Positions 7,604 to 64,000 of a stretch of DNA of 64,000 nucleotides are shown here, one piece after another. This stretch comes from a phage. Where the stretch lies: the sequence record PZ445442.1. One strand, 5' to 3'. Positions within the stretch are counted from its first letter, which is position 1. Every line of letters starts with the position of its first letter. Under the pieces are notes generated by a model. It was given only the letters and a program-made list of their open reading frames with translations, searched no databases and was not told the DNA's origin. The position numbers and the translations under genes were made by a program.

Positions 7604-9349
7604 ATGGCGCAAGACATGACAAGCTTTGAGCAGGCGGTAGATCAAGTAATTGTTGATTCTGAACGTTTGCACCTGATTGTCAACGGTAACGCTGTGGATG
7701 AAGTTGTCGTAGAGGATGGGACCACCATCCCTACGGTACGAAAAGCCATGCTTGACACCCTTTATTTTAAAACGCCACCGATCCCTTGGGCGTATGGTGC
7801 ATCCACAACAGTTTTTAACCAGCTGTACGAGTTTAAAGGGGACACAGGCCCTCAGTGGTGGTACGCTCCCGCAGCATCAAAATCTAACCCGGTTAGAATG
7901 CCAGCAGATCCTTCACAATCTCCAAACTGGAGATTATATACCGATTCTGCAGTAATGGCAAAATACTACGCAAAACTTAACAGTCCGAGGTTTGAAGGTG
8001 ACCCGCGAGTACCTACGCCTCCAATGGACGACAAATCAGAGTCTATAGCAAACACAGAGTTTGTTGTTGACTATGTGGATAGCATATTTGAAGCCATGGA
8101 GGGAATGAAAGTTACTGTAGGGTCTTTGGTGGTAAAAGGTCTTACAGAACTTGCTAACACCATAGTTGGTGGCACACTCACCTTACATGGGCCTGTTAAT
8201 GGAGCAGATTCTACTGCACGCTTCAGGAACCTAATCCTCACGGCAAATACTTCTACACTTACTTTTGCGTGGAGTGATCCTAAGCATGCAGACTGGAGAA
8301 GCACAGAGCTGCAACCTTATGAAGTGTCCACCCACAGGGTTATAGCTGACACTATAACTTCTGGGAAACCAGTGGCTAATAATAACGATGTGCATTTTGA
8401 TGGTCTAGGTAATAACTTTTTTGACTACGTGTACATTCGTGGTAATGCCATGAAGGCAGCAACCGAACCGACATTGCAGGTAGATGGGACCACCAGGGTT
8501 AAGAACCTTGAGGTGACAGGTACTGTTACAGGGATAACCTACTCTGTCGATGGCACCATGATCTACCCTAGCTATATTGAAAGCACGGGGGACGCATTAA
8601 TAAATGGTGATTTAGAAGTTGGCGGATCTGTAGTTATTCGAGGTACAGCCTCTATCCAAAACATAGCTCTGAATACCTTAAGAGTCAATGAACGTGCAAC
8701 TTTTGAAGGAGAAGGACTTACAGCCAACAAAGGTGTAATTACCGAGCTGACAACCACCACTTTAACTGCAACAACTGCAAACTCTGAAAACTGCAACGTT
8801 ACCAGAAACTTGCAGGTAAATGGAGATGTTAGTTTAAACGCAGCAGGTACGGGCACCACCTACCTTCACAACCTTGAAATATCCGGCACAGTGACTGGGT
8901 GGCTGCCAGACTTCTCTAATGTCAACTTTGTTTGTAATGGCATTAACTCCAGTGGTAAGATAACTACCTCTCAAGAAATTGAGGCGGGTAAAACCATTAC
9001 TGCCCCTACTTTCCACGCAGGAAAGGTAGATTTTGATTTAGAGGAGGTTGACGCGTCCAGTGGGACATGGACACCCAACGGGCAGGCCAGCATGTATGTT
9101 GTCCACGCGAAAGGGGATTTTACAATAGGACAATGGCCTGGTACATCAGCGGAAGATAAACCTTATCCATTTACTGCAGTTATCTATGTCATTCAGGATG
9201 CTGTAGGTCACAACGTGACTTTGCACGATAAGTATGCTATCCTGTCGGCAACACCTGTTATTAACAACAAGGCTAACAGTGTTACCCTGCTGCAATTAAC
9301 ATATTGTGGTGTTGGTGATATCGTAGACGTAGTAATTGCACAACGTTAA
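7604..9349 (+). CDS. tail fibre / tailspike-like protein
   Basis: 581 aa, Thr/Gly/Asn/Val-rich repetitive beta-type sequence typical of fibre shafts; RBS AAGGAGA. Confidence 0.5.
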   Translation: MAQDMTSFEQAVDQVIVDSERLHLIVNGNAVDEVVVEDGTTIPTVRKAMLDTLYFKTPPIPWAYGASTTVFNQLYEFKGDTGPQWWYAPAASKSNPVRMPADPSQSPNWRLYTDSAVMAKYYAKLNSPRFEGDPRVPTPPMDDKSESIANTEFVVDYVDSIFEAMEGMKVTVGSLVVKGLTELANTIVGGTLTLHGPVNGADSTARFRNLILTANTSTLTFAWSDPKHADWRSTELQPYEVSTHRVIADTITSGKPVANNNDVHFDGLGNNFFDYVYIRGNAMKAATEPTLQVDGTTRVKNLEVTGTVTGITYSVDGTMIYPSYIESTGDALINGDLEVGGSVVIRGTASIQNIALNTLRVNERATFEGEGLTANKGVITELTTTTLTATTANSENCNVTRNLQVNGDVSLNAAGTGTTYLHNLEISGTVTGWLPDFSNVNFVCNGINSSGKITTSQEIEAGKTITAPTFHAGKVDFDLEEVDASSGTWTPNGQASMYVVHAKGDFTIGQWPGTSAEDKPYPFTAVIYVIQDAVGHNVTLHDKYAILSATPVINNKANSVTLLQLTYCGVGDIVDVVIAQR

Positions 9350-9356
9350 TATATCT

Positions 9357-9385
9357 AACCGCTCCTGACGGGGCGGTTTTCTTAT
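9357..9385 (+). terminator. Rho-independent terminator
   Basis: GC stem (AACCGCTCC..GGGGCGGTT) followed by TTTTCTT after stop of 7604..9349. Confidence 0.5.
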
Positions 9386-9397
9386 CTGGAGAACACA

Positions 9398-12300
9398 ATG
9401 CTTCCAATCCCTTTGCTAAAACTTGGTCGTCATTTCCTCGATAAGAGGGGTGGAATTAAGGAACTTGCTGTTCTGTCATACCCAATAGACAACAGTGATG
9501 GTACAAGCAACACAGTATCCTATGTAAATAGCTTAGCTATACTTTTTGATGATGGTCAACTTAATATCACGGGCTATAACAGGTTCGGAGAGTGCCGCAC
9601 TGGGGATCTTGACACGATAAACTATCCCAACGAGGCTGCCTGGAACGTTGATCATGTGTGGAGAGCAGACCGTGCGTTTGTGATCCGAACTTTTGATAAC
9701 CAGTTTTTCTACATCGGCTGCACTGCAGGGCTTATTGGGTCTGATGCTGCAGGCGGTAATGATGTTTGTGTAAGAGAGTGGACACCTCTTCCTGAACAGA
9801 TCGTTAAAGGATTGCACCTTGACACCCACCCAGAGCGCCTTATTGAGGTGATGGGTGGTATTAACAACACTGTCTGGGTTATTGCAGAGGCAGAAGGCAC
9901 TGGCATACTTAACCTGTATGGGTCTGGTAACAACACCTACGGATCTTTGCATGTAGATAAAAATCAGCATGCAACCCCTGTAAAGATTGGTGAGACATCG
10001 GAAAATCCTGAAACAGGCCCTTGGAAAAACCCAAGCATCAACTGCGAGGTGCATGACAACTCTGTTATTTTCGGTGGTCCTAGGGGTTTCTGGATTGCTG
10101 GATACGACTTTCTGAGAAATAACAGTAGAAACGACCTTGTTTGGCCTCCTGTGCAGATCACTCGTAACGATTTGAGGGGCATTCCTGCAGATGAGGAGTG
10201 GAAAGGGTTTATGTGTGGTCCTAACGGGGCAATAATTGCCACACAGAGGATGCATAGACCCGATGACCAGCAGCTTGTTAACGTATTCTACGGGCAAGAC
10301 GTTTGGGGAGATGACACATGGCGTTCCTTAAATATCACCTACACCCATGAGGTAATAATGGCTCGTGGGTACGGCACAAGTGGCATTTTCTTCAATAATG
10401 GCACTAAGCAGTATCGTGGATTCTCTCGCAACTTGTGTAATGATATTGGCGCACAATCTGCAAACAATAGCCCTAGGGCCAATTTTATCCACTATCAAGC
10501 TCTTGCTACAGCTAAATATGTTGAGCAACGCCTGCCAGTTAGCTGGACAGAGAGTGTTTATTTCCAAGGCATCCACAGGGAAGGTTTCTTAGGAACCTTT
10601 ACTGTTGTTAATGGTAAACTTTGGTGGTCAGGCATCCCAAGGGGGAGTTTTGCAGGCTCTAACAACCTGTTTGGCGGCAGACTTAATAGTCAGGGGTTCA
10701 CAGAGGTTCCTGAGAATTGGTATAAAAATGTCCCAGTAGACAGTTGGGGTGTTGATGATATTTTCGACGTTAACGGTGTTAGCAGCGTTAGCAATATTTA
10801 CATTGGTGACACGGTCAAGATGAAATTGAAGCCTCAGCCAGAAGGGGCTACGTTCATTATTGACAAGATTGAACTGGTAAATGCTGCAGGCACGGTTGTT
10901 ACAGATGCAAATTACCAATTCTCCACCAACTGGAACCACGGCGGGGCCAATGAAGTTGTTGTTACCCAGTATAACAGAAATGTTAACAGACGTGGCCTGT
11001 ACTCTGTAAAAATAACTTATCATGACAAGCATGGCACAGGCAGAACCCATACGACAAGGACTTTGAACTGGAACACCATAGTTCCTGCGTATCCGTCTAA
11101 CGGCAAGTGGCATACCGTTGGTAGAAACAAGCAGTTCCATGTTAACGATACTGTATACTTTGGGCTGAATGGTACTCAGCCTGCAGTAGAAGGTGATACA
11201 TCATATATGGTCCGACTCCACAGAATGGATGCTGGATCAGTCACTTACGATGTTACCCAAGAGATTTATGATCAGAGAAGAAATACCTACAACAACTTGG
11301 TGCAGACACAGGCCGTATGGGAGTTCAACCCTAACGGCAGAGGTGGTAAAATGTTGCAGGTTAACGAGCAAAACGGAACGTCGTTAACTGTCCACGAACA
11401 CCCAGACCCTTGGCCTGATCCTGGAAAACCTCACCCAGGCGCTCGTACGCTGAAAATTGTCAGCCATGATGTAGGATATTTCGGAATACGCTGGGAAGCT
11501 ACAGTAAGGTATGCCGACGGGACAACAAACAACATAGGGATTACACTTGGGGGCACCAGTGAGGATAACTCGCTGAAAATTGCCTACACTCCTAGAGGTA
11601 TTTCTATTGATAATATGGATGTTGTTCGCAACGGTTACGGGGATGTGAACATCAAAGTTACTCTTGGTGAACATCTTGGCGGGGAAAGGATCATCATGTA
11701 CGCCTTTGATCACGACCCACGCACTGACGGAACCTATGCAGACCAAGCGTGGAGCTACCTGATAAGCGCACCTGAGCCAAATACCAAAGAATTCTACTAC
11801 GGTATGAAACGGGATGTGTGCAAGAAAACAGGGACACATGACTGGATTGCAATCTGCGTTAAAGATGAACGTACCGCTTGGGACGAGCCTGTTAACAGAT
11901 GGTTCATAGGAATTCCCACTCGAAGTGATAAATACGTTGAAGAATATATTGTATGCATGGGCGGCACCAACCTCAACATGTGTTGGAACGAGGATGCAAA
12001 CAAATACTCTGATTATGATTATATGAGGGATTACTCTTGCAATCAATGGTTTAACCAAACCGGGTATGCTAATCGACAGTCAAGAGTAAACCCTGCAATC
12101 TTTACAGATACGCAGGTTTTCTTGACAAAACAGGCCAACGAGGTTCAGACCTTCAAGAACAAATACGACCCTAACAAGTGGTTTTATAACTGTTATGGCG
12201 CATTTTTCTGGGGGCCAGGGGAACTGCCTAACGGGGGATCTTGCTTCGAGGCTGCAACTTACGCCAGTGATTACATCATGGGGCAGGTTAAGAAGTATAA

Positions 12301-50136: not shown

Positions 50137-50439
50137 TACTTGAAAATTCCTGGCATATCAAGTATAAGGGGGATTTCTAAAATGGATTTCCTCCTTTTGA
50201 TATTTCACCGGGCTGGATATTTTAAAATTCTTAGAAAATCAGAAAATGGATCGAAAACTAAAATGGATTTTTCAGAGTAGGCGCGACAAGCTGAATAGCT
50301 CATCCTATCGTTTGCACCATATTCCAGACCACCATTATAGATTTCCCACACATGCTAACCTCCCTCTACTAGAACTTCCTCCACTTACCCTTGACCTTCT
50401 ATGGTAACAATCTAACCACTATCTTGAAGTTGCGGTGCA

Positions 50440-50640
50440 GCTTTCCAGGTACTCGATCTACTTTTCATTTCAGGGCTTGGATTTTCTGAAAATTTTTCTC
50501 GATAAATTTCTCAGTACTCGATCTGTTTTTCGTTTTCTGAATCGGATTTTCTGGAAATCGTTCCGGATCTCGACCTGAAATTTTTGGGGACGAAATCTAT
50601 TTTTCGTTTTCAGAAATGGATTTTTAAAATTTCTATATGG
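50440..50640. repeat. iteron-like imperfect tandem direct repeats in non-coding region
   Basis: Three units of roughly 55-65 bp each containing GTACTCGATCT / TTTTCGTTTTC / GGATTTTCTG; AAAATGGAT recurs at about 50180, 50243, 50260, 50613. Confidence 0.5.
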
Positions 50641-50770
50641 GAATATTTTATGGGGCACTGTTTTATAGGAAATTGTTACGGAGGGTAATTAGCATGCTAA
50701 TTAAATTTATTAAATGCGAGGGATTCTTATTTAGAATTTTGAATGATAATTATTCTCGTTTGCAGAATAA

Positions 50771-50812
50771 CGGGCAGGCCCGGTGATTGTCTCCCGGCCC
50801 CTGCTGCCCCGG
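50771..50812. repeat. GC-rich palindromic element (copy 1)
   Basis: GGCAGGCCCGGTGATTGTCTCC core; inverted copy at 60344-60389. Confidence 0.45.
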
Positions 50813-50908
50813 CTTGTTATTATAGTATCACACAGGACAAAGAAGGCAAGGATTTTTTGCATAAATTTTTAAATGATAATGATAACCGTTCTCATTTTAT
50901 GAAGCGCC

Positions 50909-50950
50909 CATCCCCGGTGGTTGTCTCCCCCGTCACCGGTGCCTGCCGTC
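50909..50950. repeat. GC-rich palindromic element (copy 2, divergent)
   Basis: CCCCGGTGGTTGTCTCCCCCGTCACCGGTGCCTGCC, related to copy 1. Confidence 0.4.
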
Positions 50951-51101
50951 CTTTCGATAGGTATATTATGCCGCCTGGCGGGGCCGCTGTCAACACTTTT
51001 CAAAAAATTTTTCTAACCTGATGCGCTAACCGTTGCAACCTGGCGGGGCCAGCCTGGCAGGTCCGCACTATAAAGTAAACAGCTACAGAAGAGGTACAAA
51101 A

Positions 51102-51227
51102 ATGAAAGGTAATGCTACTCGCCTGGGAAATGTAGTGATTAATGATACGGAAGCTATCGCCCTGGTTGAAAAGGTTATGGCGGGAGCGTTGGAACATAAA
51201 GAAGAGTACGAAAAAAATGGTGGTTAA
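51102..51227 (+). CDS. small early protein
   Basis: 41 aa from ATG 51102 with RBS AGAGG; the track ORF upstream overlaps repeats. Confidence 0.35.
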   Translation: MKGNATRLGNVVINDTEAIALVEKVMAGALEHKEEYEKNGG

Positions 51228-51280
51228 CCTGGCGGGGGGCGGCAGGTGGATTCTATCATAAAAATAATTTAAAATAGTCG

Positions 51281-51308
51281 TTGACAACAAGGTTAATCAT
51301 GGTATTAT
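51281..51308 (+). promoter_or_regulatory. sigma70-like promoter
   Basis: TTGACA-16nt-TATTAT upstream of 51359 gene. Confidence 0.5.
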
Positions 51309-61533: not shown

Positions 61534-61953
61534 ATGAACATTAAATCTAATAATCCGGCATATAGCTTTGATAACGCTTTTTGTCACGGTCCGGCGGCGA
61601 AAGGATTCGAAATCGATGGTAAACTAATTATTGTCAATGTTGACGGGGAAGAGGTTGCAGTATATCCGGTGGCAGACGTTAAAAGCCGTCTACAATGCCG
61701 CATGGATGTTACCGCCTATCAGCTTGATCCGGTCCGCATAGTTGCCCTGGTCCTGGAAGAAGAAATTAAAGCCATGCACCATAGCAACAGATTTATTGGT
61801 GACGCGCAGGATAATATGAAAGTATGCCGCCATAAAGTTAATGAAGTGCTTAAAGAGTACGGCTATAAAGATCTTATGATCAAACGCGAGGAAAAATTCC
61901 GCTACCGTAACGACCTGGCAAATCGGATTTTTGAAATATACGAATCATTATAA
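61534..61953 (+). CDS. hypothetical early protein
   Basis: 139-aa ORF, RBS AAGAGG; TTGACA-17-TATATT promoter at about 61449-61477. Confidence 0.5.
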   Translation: MNIKSNNPAYSFDNAFCHGPAAKGFEIDGKLIIVNVDGEEVAVYPVADVKSRLQCRMDVTAYQLDPVRIVALVLEEEIKAMHHSNRFIGDAQDNMKVCRHKVNEVLKEYGYKDLMIKREEKFRYRNDLANRIFEIYESL

Positions 61954-61971
61954 TTTTTTAACTGAATTATC

Positions 61972-61996
61972 AAGGGGCTTAGGCCCCTTTCTTTTT
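61972..61996 (+). terminator. Rho-independent terminator
   Basis: AAGGGGC-TTAG-GCCCCTT followed by TCTTTTT; last clear signal before the non-coding repeat region. Confidence 0.65.
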
Positions 61997-62599
61997 GTCT
62001 GCTCTTCCCCCTACCATAAACGGCCCTACCTGGCAAGTGGAATAATTGACGAGCCATCAATCCCACACACTGTACAAACATACATATAAAATAACTATTG
62101 CATAATTTTTCATTGTGTGGTAGCAGGGCCATTTTTACACATTTTTCCTTCCAAAATTGCACGTAATGCAGCATTTGCACAAAATTTAACCTGATGCATA
62201 TATTCAATAGCTTGTCAACAACTAAAAATCTTTATAAGTCATACACTTACATAACTACAAAAGCGTTTTCTACGTGAAAAATCGAGTATAACTATAGCCG
62301 CCAGATCTCAGAATTTACGTACGCTCGCCATTCTATAGCCTGCTAAGCATTTATTCCAACCATAGAATAACGGAATAGTCAATACCTGCATAAAATAATT
62401 ATTCGTGTAAACTGCATAACATAAATCGGCCCAGGTGTCAACATTTTTCGTAAACAGTCTGGAATTGTCACGTTAGGTTACCATAAGCAGAGAAATCTTT
62501 AGTCGTCTAATGTTTACTGTACGTTACTATATTAACTGAAATCATTAGATGACTAATAGAAAGATAAGAAATAATTAACAATACAATTATTTTATCTGT

Positions 62600-62835
62600 A
62601 ACAATAAGGCAACTATGCAAACGAATGGCATGGCGCGACGGAGTCGCGACATAATATAAAAGCAGTAACCATCACCCCCGTGATAGTTTGTCTGCAAACT
62701 ATTAATCAGATCATAGTTGCCTTGTATTTAGTTAATCATGACATAACAAGCAAGGCAACTATAGATCTTCTAATAGTTGCCCTGCTTTTATATTATGTCA
62801 TAAATTATTAACATGCAAACGAATGGCATGGCTTA
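62600..62835. repeat. cluster of direct and inverted repeats in AT-rich non-coding DNA
   Basis: GGCAACTAT/ATAGTTGCC four times in alternating orientation (about 62608, 62713, 62754, 62774); 20-bp direct repeat ATGCAAACGAATGGCATGGC at about 62615 and 62812; 18-bp inverted repeat GACATAATATAAAAGCAG at about 62648 and 62782. Confidence 0.5.
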
Positions 62836-63542
62836 TAATTTTTGAGAAAATAGTCTATACGTGAACAGTAAGGCATGCAATAGTAACAATTGTTATTGTA
62901 TCCAGTGTGTTGAGTATGCCCAGTATGTCACCATTGTGTCCAGTATGTCAGACAAGTTTTCCTCCTCTTTGTCAAGTGCTGCATGAAAAATTTACAAACT
63001 GGTATGGTAGCATTTTTGCGGCCCTGTTTACATTCAGTAATGTATGTATAATCCTTGTTGTGTGGGCGTTTAGACGTCTAGACGGTTGGAAGTCTACAGG
63101 TCAATATCTAATCTATTGGCTGCTAACTATATCCCACACAAATAGTAAGAAATATGATTGTTATATGCGTAAACTGTAACTCATGTTATCAATCCCTGTA
63201 TGTATCACCAGTGGTGCGCATAATGGGTATTATGTTAAATTGCCCGTAATGATAACTATTCTCACAATGATAGGTATTCTCATTCACCCCAACAAAATAG
63301 GTTGCAAATGTTGTGCCACTGTGTGAACGGCCTCACCTATTAATTTGCCTCACTGCCTCGATATTTGAGAATTATTATAAAAATGAGAAGTATTCCCATT
63401 CCGTCCGCCTGGCAGCACTCCAGTCGCTACGGCTCCTGACAGGGCAGCACTCCTGTAGGTCAGGTCAAAATCGGGGTAGAACTGGACCTGTTCAGATATT
63501 TCTGGCTGACTCTTCAGGTCTGTGTGGGAAAAGCCAACCTCT

Positions 63543-63703
63543 CCGGCGGGGCAGGGGAGGTAAATTAAAAAATTTACGTGGTGTATGAAGAGCCCTTCAG
63601 GTAAGGCATGTATTATAGGATGAAACCCTCTTCAGGCATGATATTTGTGGGTGTGATATTTGCTGGAAAGCCAGATATGACGGGACTCCCGGCGGGGCAG
63701 GGG
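63543..63703. repeat. direct repeats CCGGCGGGGCAGGGG about 145 bp apart
   Basis: CTCCGGCGGGGCAGGGGAGG at about 63541 and ACTCCCGGCGGGGCAGGGGTAG at about 63686, with CTTCAGG.ATG repeats between. Confidence 0.4.
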
Positions 63704-64000
63704 TAGTACAGACGGGGAAATATGGGGATGTAGTTGGGGAAATTGATCAGGCAGGTGGGGTATAGGATATGTTACAAGTATGTTAAATATGGAGGTTGAA
63801 TATCTGTAGGATTTGTGTGTAAAATCAAAGACTTAAGTGGTGTTGTGGTATTTTCTATAAATAATTCAAGTTTAATAGGTAATATTTGCCTCTATCCACT
63901 TTGTGTGGTAAACAGATTCAGATGAGATTAGTTTACAAGTGTATACATAATATACAAATTAAAGATACAGGAAACCCCCCTCCCCCTTCGGCTACCATTC

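Follow-up and report, generated by a model that had tools for sequence, protein, structure and literature searches.

Bacteriophage T7 reportedly carries a 160-bp terminal repeat with adjoining arrays of short repeats, and its maturation is said to involve a hairpin intermediate. In the T7 model of concatemer processing this hairpin lies at an inverted repeat near the junction, and the classical route to a duplicated terminal repeat is to stagger nicks on opposite strands and then fill in by strand-displacement synthesis. We describe here a related arrangement at the end of a 64,000-nucleotide stretch of phage DNA (sequence record PZ445442.1, referred to hereafter as the window), where a gap devoid of open reading frames (ORFs) holds a 459-bp segment that is very probably the terminal repeat of the phage chromosome. 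The 2.1 kb around this segment match Escherichia phage EmilHeitz (MZ501062, BASEL Bas49, Vequintavirus, rV5-like) at 100% and are 90–95% identical in ~120 other records; window positions are those of the EmilHeitz record minus 32,682. The likeness to T7 lies in a repeat that is short and exact, in the fixed ends, in a replication machinery that includes a T7-like primase-helicase and a family-A polymerase (both encoded in the window, as found by a Pfam scan of nine large ORFs), in degenerate short-repeat arrays directly outside the repeat, and in a palindrome ~200 bp from one end of the junction. The phage differs from T7 in being a myovirus of ~140 kb, in the length of its repeat (459 bp) and in having genes that converge on the ends; neither a phage RNA polymerase nor phiOL/phiOR-type promoters are evident in the window.

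Within the genus, the rV5 paper drew a grey, ORF-less "non-coding" box between the convergent genes 163 and 164, and reported that the expected bidirectional terminator was not found and that the origin could not be defined (PMC3606486); the gap analyzed here is the same ORF-less interval between convergent arrays. Korf 2019 linearized contigs at the points where most reads stopped abruptly and reports terminal redundancies of 458 bp for EdH4 and HdK5 (PMC6563267), and Dias 2020 described Gotham with 459-bp terminal repeats and the same start in all virions (PMC7471380). The central point, that the rV5 gap contains a terminal repeat of 459 bp, is already known for near-identical phages. Publications on Vequintavirus give the length of the repeat only, and describe neither the motif at its boundaries nor the variable arrays and the palindrome beside it; what we add is a base-level map, a partition of the locus into constrained, variable and dispensable parts, and a candidate cut-site rule that extends across genera.

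Two more distant systems are informative. Klebsiella phage KPP-1 (Mydovirus) has a 514-bp repeat at 116,316–116,829, which was delimited by PhageTerm and by two-fold coverage and was assigned to the T7 type (PMC9862379). Its ~1.8-kb gap likewise lies between convergent arrays and its ends are homologous to those described here (GACGGAC... and ...CTCCTTGTCAAG), although the repeat is longer (514 vs 459 bp), only ~37 nt can be aligned and the internal motifs sit nearer the other repeat end. In ICP1, gp1 and gp2 are separated by 1.3 kb of ORF-less sequence that contains the terminus; its PhageTerm peaks fall at 431 (+) and 891 (−) (PMC7145576), 461 bp from each other. ICP1 shares a related replisome (46% polymerase identity), an ORF-less terminus, AATGAGAATCATTC-type motifs between the cuts and a palindromic element in the adjoining AT-rich arm; it differs in that its authors read a headful pac phage, in that only short motifs are alignable, and in that the G-rich arm lies on the other side. 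The peak spacing suggests that ICP1 carries a 461-bp terminal repeat, contrary to its treatment as headful; phiHNL01, a relative of ICP1, has a 383-bp repeat, and one of 328 bp has been mapped in Schickermooser, a further relative.

The 459-bp repeat in the ORF-less gap

The EdH4 record opens and closes with exactly the same 459 nt, and both copies map to window 62,951–63,409 with 94–97% identity; the repeats of HdK5 and Gotham agree with it in length and boundaries at the same level of identity. A search with the repeat segment retrieves 120 records at 90–100% identity, two of which (YN3 and ECP2309) carry both copies. At least nine records start or end exactly at the repeat boundaries (YN3, ECP2309, ECP2303, EdH4, HdK5 and four bovine phages), and the records that break exactly there come from at least four groups; those of the bovine phages have been re-issued (version.2) and now begin precisely at the boundary. 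In an alignment of the gaps from 18 Vequintavirus genomes, to which all counts out of 18 below refer, the repeat measures 459 bp in 16 cases and is one base shorter (458 bp) in the other two, with ~5% substitutions and essentially no indels. These observations make it highly probable that the region represents the physical end of the phage chromosome in its concatemer-junction form, with a 459-bp direct terminal repeat at the virion ends. A genome terminus or terminal-repeat/packaging region had been the first of the candidate roles offered by a preliminary description of this DNA, and the position of the EdH4 repeat, together with the repeats of Korf 2019 and Dias 2020, bears that proposal out; the role was right, but the repeat had not been delimited, and the motifs that were stressed lie outside it, in a module absent from phage FV3 (see below).

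The EmilHeitz record (139,980 bp) has a single, unannotated copy of the repeat because assemblies collapse the two copies into one. The true genome would then be ~140,439 bp (139,980 + 459), starting at window 62,951 and ending at 63,409. Along with EmilHeitz, ~100 other Vequintavirus records have been deposited as if circularly permuted, with arbitrary starts and sometimes with spurious ORFs in the gap. Knowledge of the fixed ends matters for genome rebooting and for judging the risk of generalized transduction, headful packagers carrying a higher risk than those with fixed ends.

A proposed cut-site pattern and candidate recognition elements

The left boundary, GTCAGACAAGTTTT, is invariant in all 18 genomes, and the right boundary, GCCTGGCA, is kept in 16. 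The start of the EdH4 record, GGCGGACGG..., matches in reverse complement the sequence that ends at 63409. Both EmilHeitz boundaries present the same 8-nt pattern, inverted and cut in the same register. The KPP-1 boundaries fall exactly on TGCTA|GAC (top strand) and TGCTA|AAC (bottom strand), and the ICP1_2006_E peaks fall on TGTTA^AGC (426–433) and TGCTT^AAC (887–894), such that six mature 5′ ends from three genera (Vequintavirus, KPP-1, ICP1) all conform to 5′-TGYYW^RRC on opposite strands. This pattern occurs at 0.6–0.96 per kb per strand, and two exact matches in KPP-1 would arise by chance with a probability of ~1e-6. Its placement on opposite strands suggests staggered nicking.

Inside the repeat, the most conserved element is a core around GCGCATAATGGGTATTATGTTAAATTGCC, which is also the only segment that can be aligned across genera (KPP-1 116521–116555, 81% over 37 nt, E=0.002); ICP1 has TATTATGTAAAATTG. 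Adjacent to the core and again near the right end are copies of a bipartite motif (AATGAKAA-N2-RTTCYCA) whose half-sites are conserved and whose spacer is variable among the 18 genomes, with four matches in the window against 0.18 expected; the motif also occurs outside the terminus, at 50,742 and 50,878. Related bipartite motifs are found inside the KPP-1 and ICP1 repeats, where the 14-mer AATGAGAATCATTC is identical in both, and the ICP1 and EmilHeitz gaps have 27 10-mers in common, against 13 in shuffled controls (p ~0.003). We regard the bipartite motif as a candidate site for protein recognition, perhaps by terminase. It resembles a Fur box, and 12–16 of 19 positions of AATGATA-N4-TTCTCA match, but the right half is consistently TTCTCA rather than TTATCA, and the Fur-box reading was not retained.

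We tentatively propose, as a possibility that we hold to be somewhat short of even, that the rV5/ICP1 supergroup follows a common terminase rule, with nicking after TGYYW in TGYYW^RRC on opposite strands at the two edges of a 380–515-bp repeat. If so, ICP1 would be a short-terminal-repeat phage whose "pac site" is the repeat, the repeat-internal AATGAKAA-N2-RTTC motif would be the recognition element, and AATGAGAATCATTC might prove to be the 14-bp core of which the PLE satellite carries a mimic. The rule would provide a testable handle on terminase recognition in a large group that includes ICP1, whose pac signal is partly mimicked by a satellite.

Beyond the observed position and conservation of the repeat, its boundary motif and the neighboring palindrome, we infer an order of nicking and fill-in and the motif that terminase might read. 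A T7-like replisome would generate concatemers in which adjoining genomes share one copy of the repeat. Terminase would be placed by signals in or near the repeat, for which the core (63,214–63,250) and the AATGAKAA-N2-RTTC motifs are candidates. The enzyme would nick between 62950 and 62951 (TGTCA^GAC) on the top strand, and between 63410 and 63409 (TGCCA^GGC) on the bottom. Strand-displacement synthesis from the two 3′-OH ends would duplicate the 459 bp, leaving a full repeat on each released genome; the predicted virion ends are ...TGACA-complement/GACAAG and ...CGTCCGCC. Both arms would be accessory to this process, the left with its slippage- and recombination-prone array and dispensable palindrome, the right with its indel hot spot and G-rich arm.

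Flanking arms and the palindromic module

Divergence across the locus, measured as the mean pairwise difference along the 18 aligned genomes, is collected with the coordinates of its features in Table 1. The AT-rich left arm is more conserved than the neighboring gene bas49_0135.

Table 1. Features of the gap and its edges in window coordinates. Intervals over which divergence was measured are given in brackets; in L001 coordinates, 9,052–9,510 correspond to window 62,951–63,409.
Feature	Position	Strand	Mean pairwise difference	Remarks
Last rightward gene	61534–61953	+		Ends at left edge of gap
Upstream gene bas49_0135	to 61,953		0.16–0.22
Rho-independent terminator	61972–61999	+		Terminator scan; hairpin AAGGGGCTTAGGCCCCTT and T-run (L001 8073–8090); closes rightward array
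AT-rich left arm	62000–62600		0.03–0.13 (62,004–62,800)	~35% GC, no conserved ORF
198-bp module	62615–62832			Between exact 20-nt direct repeats ATGCAAACGAATGGCATGGC (62615–62634, 62813–62832)
Hypervariable array	62840–62950		0.40–0.46 (62,854–62,953)	Degenerate short units GTRAACWGT... / ...ATGTCA; abuts left cut
Left boundary, putative nick TGTCA^GAC	62946–62953	+		Mature top-strand 5′ end G62951
Direct terminal repeat, 459 bp	62951–63409		0.01–0.09 (62,954–63,403)	One collapsed copy; EdH4 ends map here
Most conserved repeat core, ...GCGCATAATGGGTATTATGTTAAATTGCC...	63214–63250		0.009 within genus (bin 63204–63253)
Bipartite motif AATGAKAA-N2-RTTCYCA, three copies	63248–63264, 63266–63282, 63382–63398	+		Repeat family
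Right boundary, putative nick TGCCA^GGC	63407–63414	−		Mature bottom-strand 5′ end pairs with C63409
Indel hot spot	63422–63465		0.38 (63,404–63,453); distal part 0.20 (63,454–63,503)	GGCAGCACTCC direct-repeat pair; begins 12 nt outside right boundary
G-rich right arm	63505–63770	+	0.03–0.15 (63,504–64,003, including 63,904–64,003)	Two ~146-nt-spaced units (CTCTTCAGG...TGTGGG...CCGGCGGGGCAGGGG); six GGGG runs
Ultra-conserved ~335-nt block	63975 to ~64,310		0.00–0.025 (64,004–64,300)	L001 10076–10411; runs past window end

Four copies of the 9-bp motif GGCAACTAT, where ~0.27 per strand would be expected in 64 kb, are packed into 175 nt of the left arm. Their orientation alternates: those at 62608 and 62754 read forward and those at 62713 and 62773 in reverse, and successive copies are 105, 41 and 19 nt apart. 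Together, the copies at 62754 and 62773 make up a 15-nt inverted repeat whose arms are separated by 10 nt. The outer stem of a ~150-nt compound palindrome is an exact 18-nt inverted repeat (62648–62665/62782–62799), and its inner stems are the GGCAACTAT copies at 62713, 62754 and 62773. The fold z-score of this block is similar on both strands (−8.4 on the plus, −7.8 on the minus strand), indicating a DNA palindrome rather than a strand-specific RNA. All of these elements, namely the GGCAACTAT copies and the 20-nt direct and 18-nt inverted repeats, are situated 150–340 nt outside the terminal repeat, the compound palindrome being ~200 bp outside the left cut; in KPP-1 and ICP1 the most palindromic windows are found 140–540 nt beyond the apparent equivalent of this repeat end (the orientation of ICP1 being weakly supported).

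The module bounded by the 20-nt repeats is nearly invariant in 17 of the 18 genomes and at least 95% identical in 118 records. FV3 (NC_019517) lacks exactly the 198 bp between these repeats and with them three of the four GGCAACTAT copies, a deletion that evidently arose by recombination between the repeats; the module is therefore dispensable for growth. We also observe GC-rich, hairpin-bearing insertions near 62744 and 62801 in rV5, navn, JohannBauhin, SYGMH1 and naam, including one of 47 nt (AGAAACACCCGAAGGGGTGACC...) and another of ~33 nt (TAAACTCAGGCATAGCCTTCGTCTCGAGGATGT), at sites that differ among genomes; these recurring small hairpin insertions resemble miniature mobile or recombination-borne cassettes.

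Variation is concentrated immediately outside the two cuts. To the left, the hypervariable array differs in copy number among genomes and reaches its greatest length in rV5, for which Tandem Repeats Finder reports a period of ~16; the CCAGTATGTCA copies at 62920 and 62940 are its last two units, and in the 18 genomes the second 20-nt repeat is separated from the left cut by 106–211 nt. To the right, 24–74 nt lie between the cut and the next conserved anchor.

In the G-rich arm, CCGGCGGGGCAGGGG occurs at 63543 and 63689, and C[CT]GGCGGGG has only five copies in 72 kb, in this arm and at 50.97–51.23 kb. Six GGGG runs fall within ~70 nt of the plus strand at 63682–63765, and the sole G-quadruplex-type motif (loops <=12) of the 72 kb examined lies in this arm. 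We did not retain the idea of a G-quadruplex, given one loose motif only and a G-run density that is no clear outlier.

The ultra-conserved block is at least 98% identical in 119 records, far above the surrounding genes. It contains a C6TC5 tract and, on the minus strand, a near-consensus sigma-70 promoter that faces the terminus (L001 10371->10344); a hairpin at L001 10321->10309 is probably the terminator of the minus-strand gene array. The block gives no fold signal on either strand (z −1.1 and −0.2) and no Rfam match at E<1.

Alternative readings and gene context

Under headful (pac) packaging the region would be a pac site from which a packaging series sets out, and virion DNA would combine terminal redundancy with circular permutation. 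Published assignments in favor of this count equally against a fixed terminal repeat: rV5 was described as circularly permuted (PMC3606486), a statement based on a circular Sanger assembly; PhageTerm returned "circular permutated" for four bovine Vequintaviruses, although the bovine records have since been re-issued to start at the repeat boundary, and headful for BpE1AUH; and ICP1 is treated in its literature as a headful pac phage, yet its opposite-strand read-start peaks ~460 bp apart are a terminal-repeat signature. The terminal-repeat assignment has further points to contend with, in that the putative nick-and-fill-in step is borrowed from T7, that TGYYW^RRC was partly defined after seeing the data (leaving KPP-1 as the only clean test), that ~85 further copies of this pattern elsewhere in the 72 kb mean it cannot be the sole determinant of cutting, and that the record of EmilHeitz itself has one unannotated copy. 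Headful packaging nevertheless sits poorly with fixed ends bearing 458/459-bp repeats from two groups, with the two-fold coverage over 514 bp in KPP-1 and with a repeat length conserved in all 18 genomes, and we regard it as very unlikely.

Other functions proposed for the gap concern its repeats and its conservation rather than its ends. A second origin had been suggested in the preliminary description, and an origin (iteron-type on GGCAACTAT, or late and transcription-primed) could coexist with a terminal repeat; the left arm is AT-rich and repeat-bearing, the rV5 origin was never defined, late rolling-circle replication of ICP1 appears to start near its terminus, and the strong minus-strand sigma-70 promoter is followed ~250 nt downstream by G5AG6 in the transcript, which invites speculation about an R-loop-primed origin. 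The alternating, irregularly spaced and palindromic GGCAACTAT copies are not an iteron array, however, no initiator gene is adjacent, viable FV3 lacks the block, skew changes follow the direction of transcription and a second repeat locus at 50.4–51.3 kb is at least as origin-like, such that the suggestion is not upheld for the GGCAACTAT cluster and an origin of either type appears unlikely. Somewhat less probable again is that the conserved non-coding segments (62,600–62,835 and 63,975–64,310) encode small or structured RNAs. Their conservation exceeds that of neighboring genes, the ultra-conserved block has its near-consensus promoter, and a minus-strand promoter-like site and a terminator-like hairpin bracket 62,819->62,657; but the strong fold score of the palindromic block is matched on the opposite strand, as for a DNA palindrome, the ultra-conserved block is without fold signal, neither segment is backed by an Rfam match, and the absence of sequence variation makes covariation impossible to assess. 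Least credible of all are unannotated small protein genes. Mangalyan (OR449013) and NHEP1 (PQ511146) annotate 12–16 ORFs of 30–60 aa in the gap, almost certainly over-calls, whereas most curated records leave it empty; ORFs 62907–63179, 63313–63588 and 61902–62207 (the last of 101 aa on the minus strand) are intact in only two, one and three of the 18 genomes, and indel lengths are not multiples of three. A 54-aa ORF at 64079–64243 is intact in 18/18 because the surrounding block is invariant, but it has a GTG start and no ribosome-binding site, and conservation continues for >100 nt beyond both of its sides. A partition site, also raised earlier, is not supported; nothing points there, there is no obvious rationale for one in a virulent myovirus, and the flanking genes were unscanned for Par.

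The repeat locus at window 50400–51300 is an observation in its own right. This second repeat-dense stretch coincides with doubtful small annotated ORFs (bas49_0102–0104) and a local skew dip, shares with the terminal gap AATGATA-N4-TTCTC (50742, 50878) and C[CT]GGCGGGG (50975, 51040, 51229), and also holds iteron-like GATTTTCTGRAAAT and TTTTCGTTTTC repeats; possible roles are those of an origin or of a regulatory hub.

The terminal repeat is set in an interval of 2.45 kb, window 61,954–64,399, for which the EmilHeitz record has no annotation (between its positions 94,636 and 97,081). Plus-strand genes end at the left edge of this gap and minus-strand genes at the right, and its flanking genes are all small hypothetical genes. 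The preliminary description, which had been limited to the window, placed two kilobases of AT-rich, repeat-dense, gene-free DNA after the last early gene. The absence of a credible gene holds, as does the terminator behind the preceding gene, and the listed repeats (GGCAACTAT four times, the 20-bp direct repeat, the 18-bp inverted repeat and the repeated blocks) are all present and non-random. The region does follow the last rightward gene, but it lies between convergent arrays and continues for ~400 nt beyond the window end; its first kilobase is AT-rich (35.3% GC), unlike 63001–64000 (41.8% GC, with G>C skew); and the enrichment of promoter-like sites is weak (18 vs 10.6 +/- 3.7 expected).

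Sensitive blastn with the gap and with the ultra-conserved block found no relatives outside the genus, and tblastn matches to a flanking 71-aa protein stayed within it; E. coli genomes gave only chance-level matches of 41 nt, with no host-derived or mobile element evident. The gap scan against Rfam 15 had a best match of 22 bits (gathering score 95, E=0.57), the window has no tRNA or tmRNA genes, and the nine large ORFs scanned against Pfam include no terminase, TerL being encoded outside the window.

Two minor observations concern the gap as a whole. The motif TCCCACACA has four copies in it (62062 and 63132 on the plus strand, 63521 and 64305 on the minus strand) against one in the other ~70 kb, and is a possible binding site for some factor. 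Nineteen unannotated "Campylobacter phage" records (MG0656xx, host C. jejuni) are 90–97% identical to E. coli Vequintaviruses here, and are probably coliphage contaminants or mislabeled.

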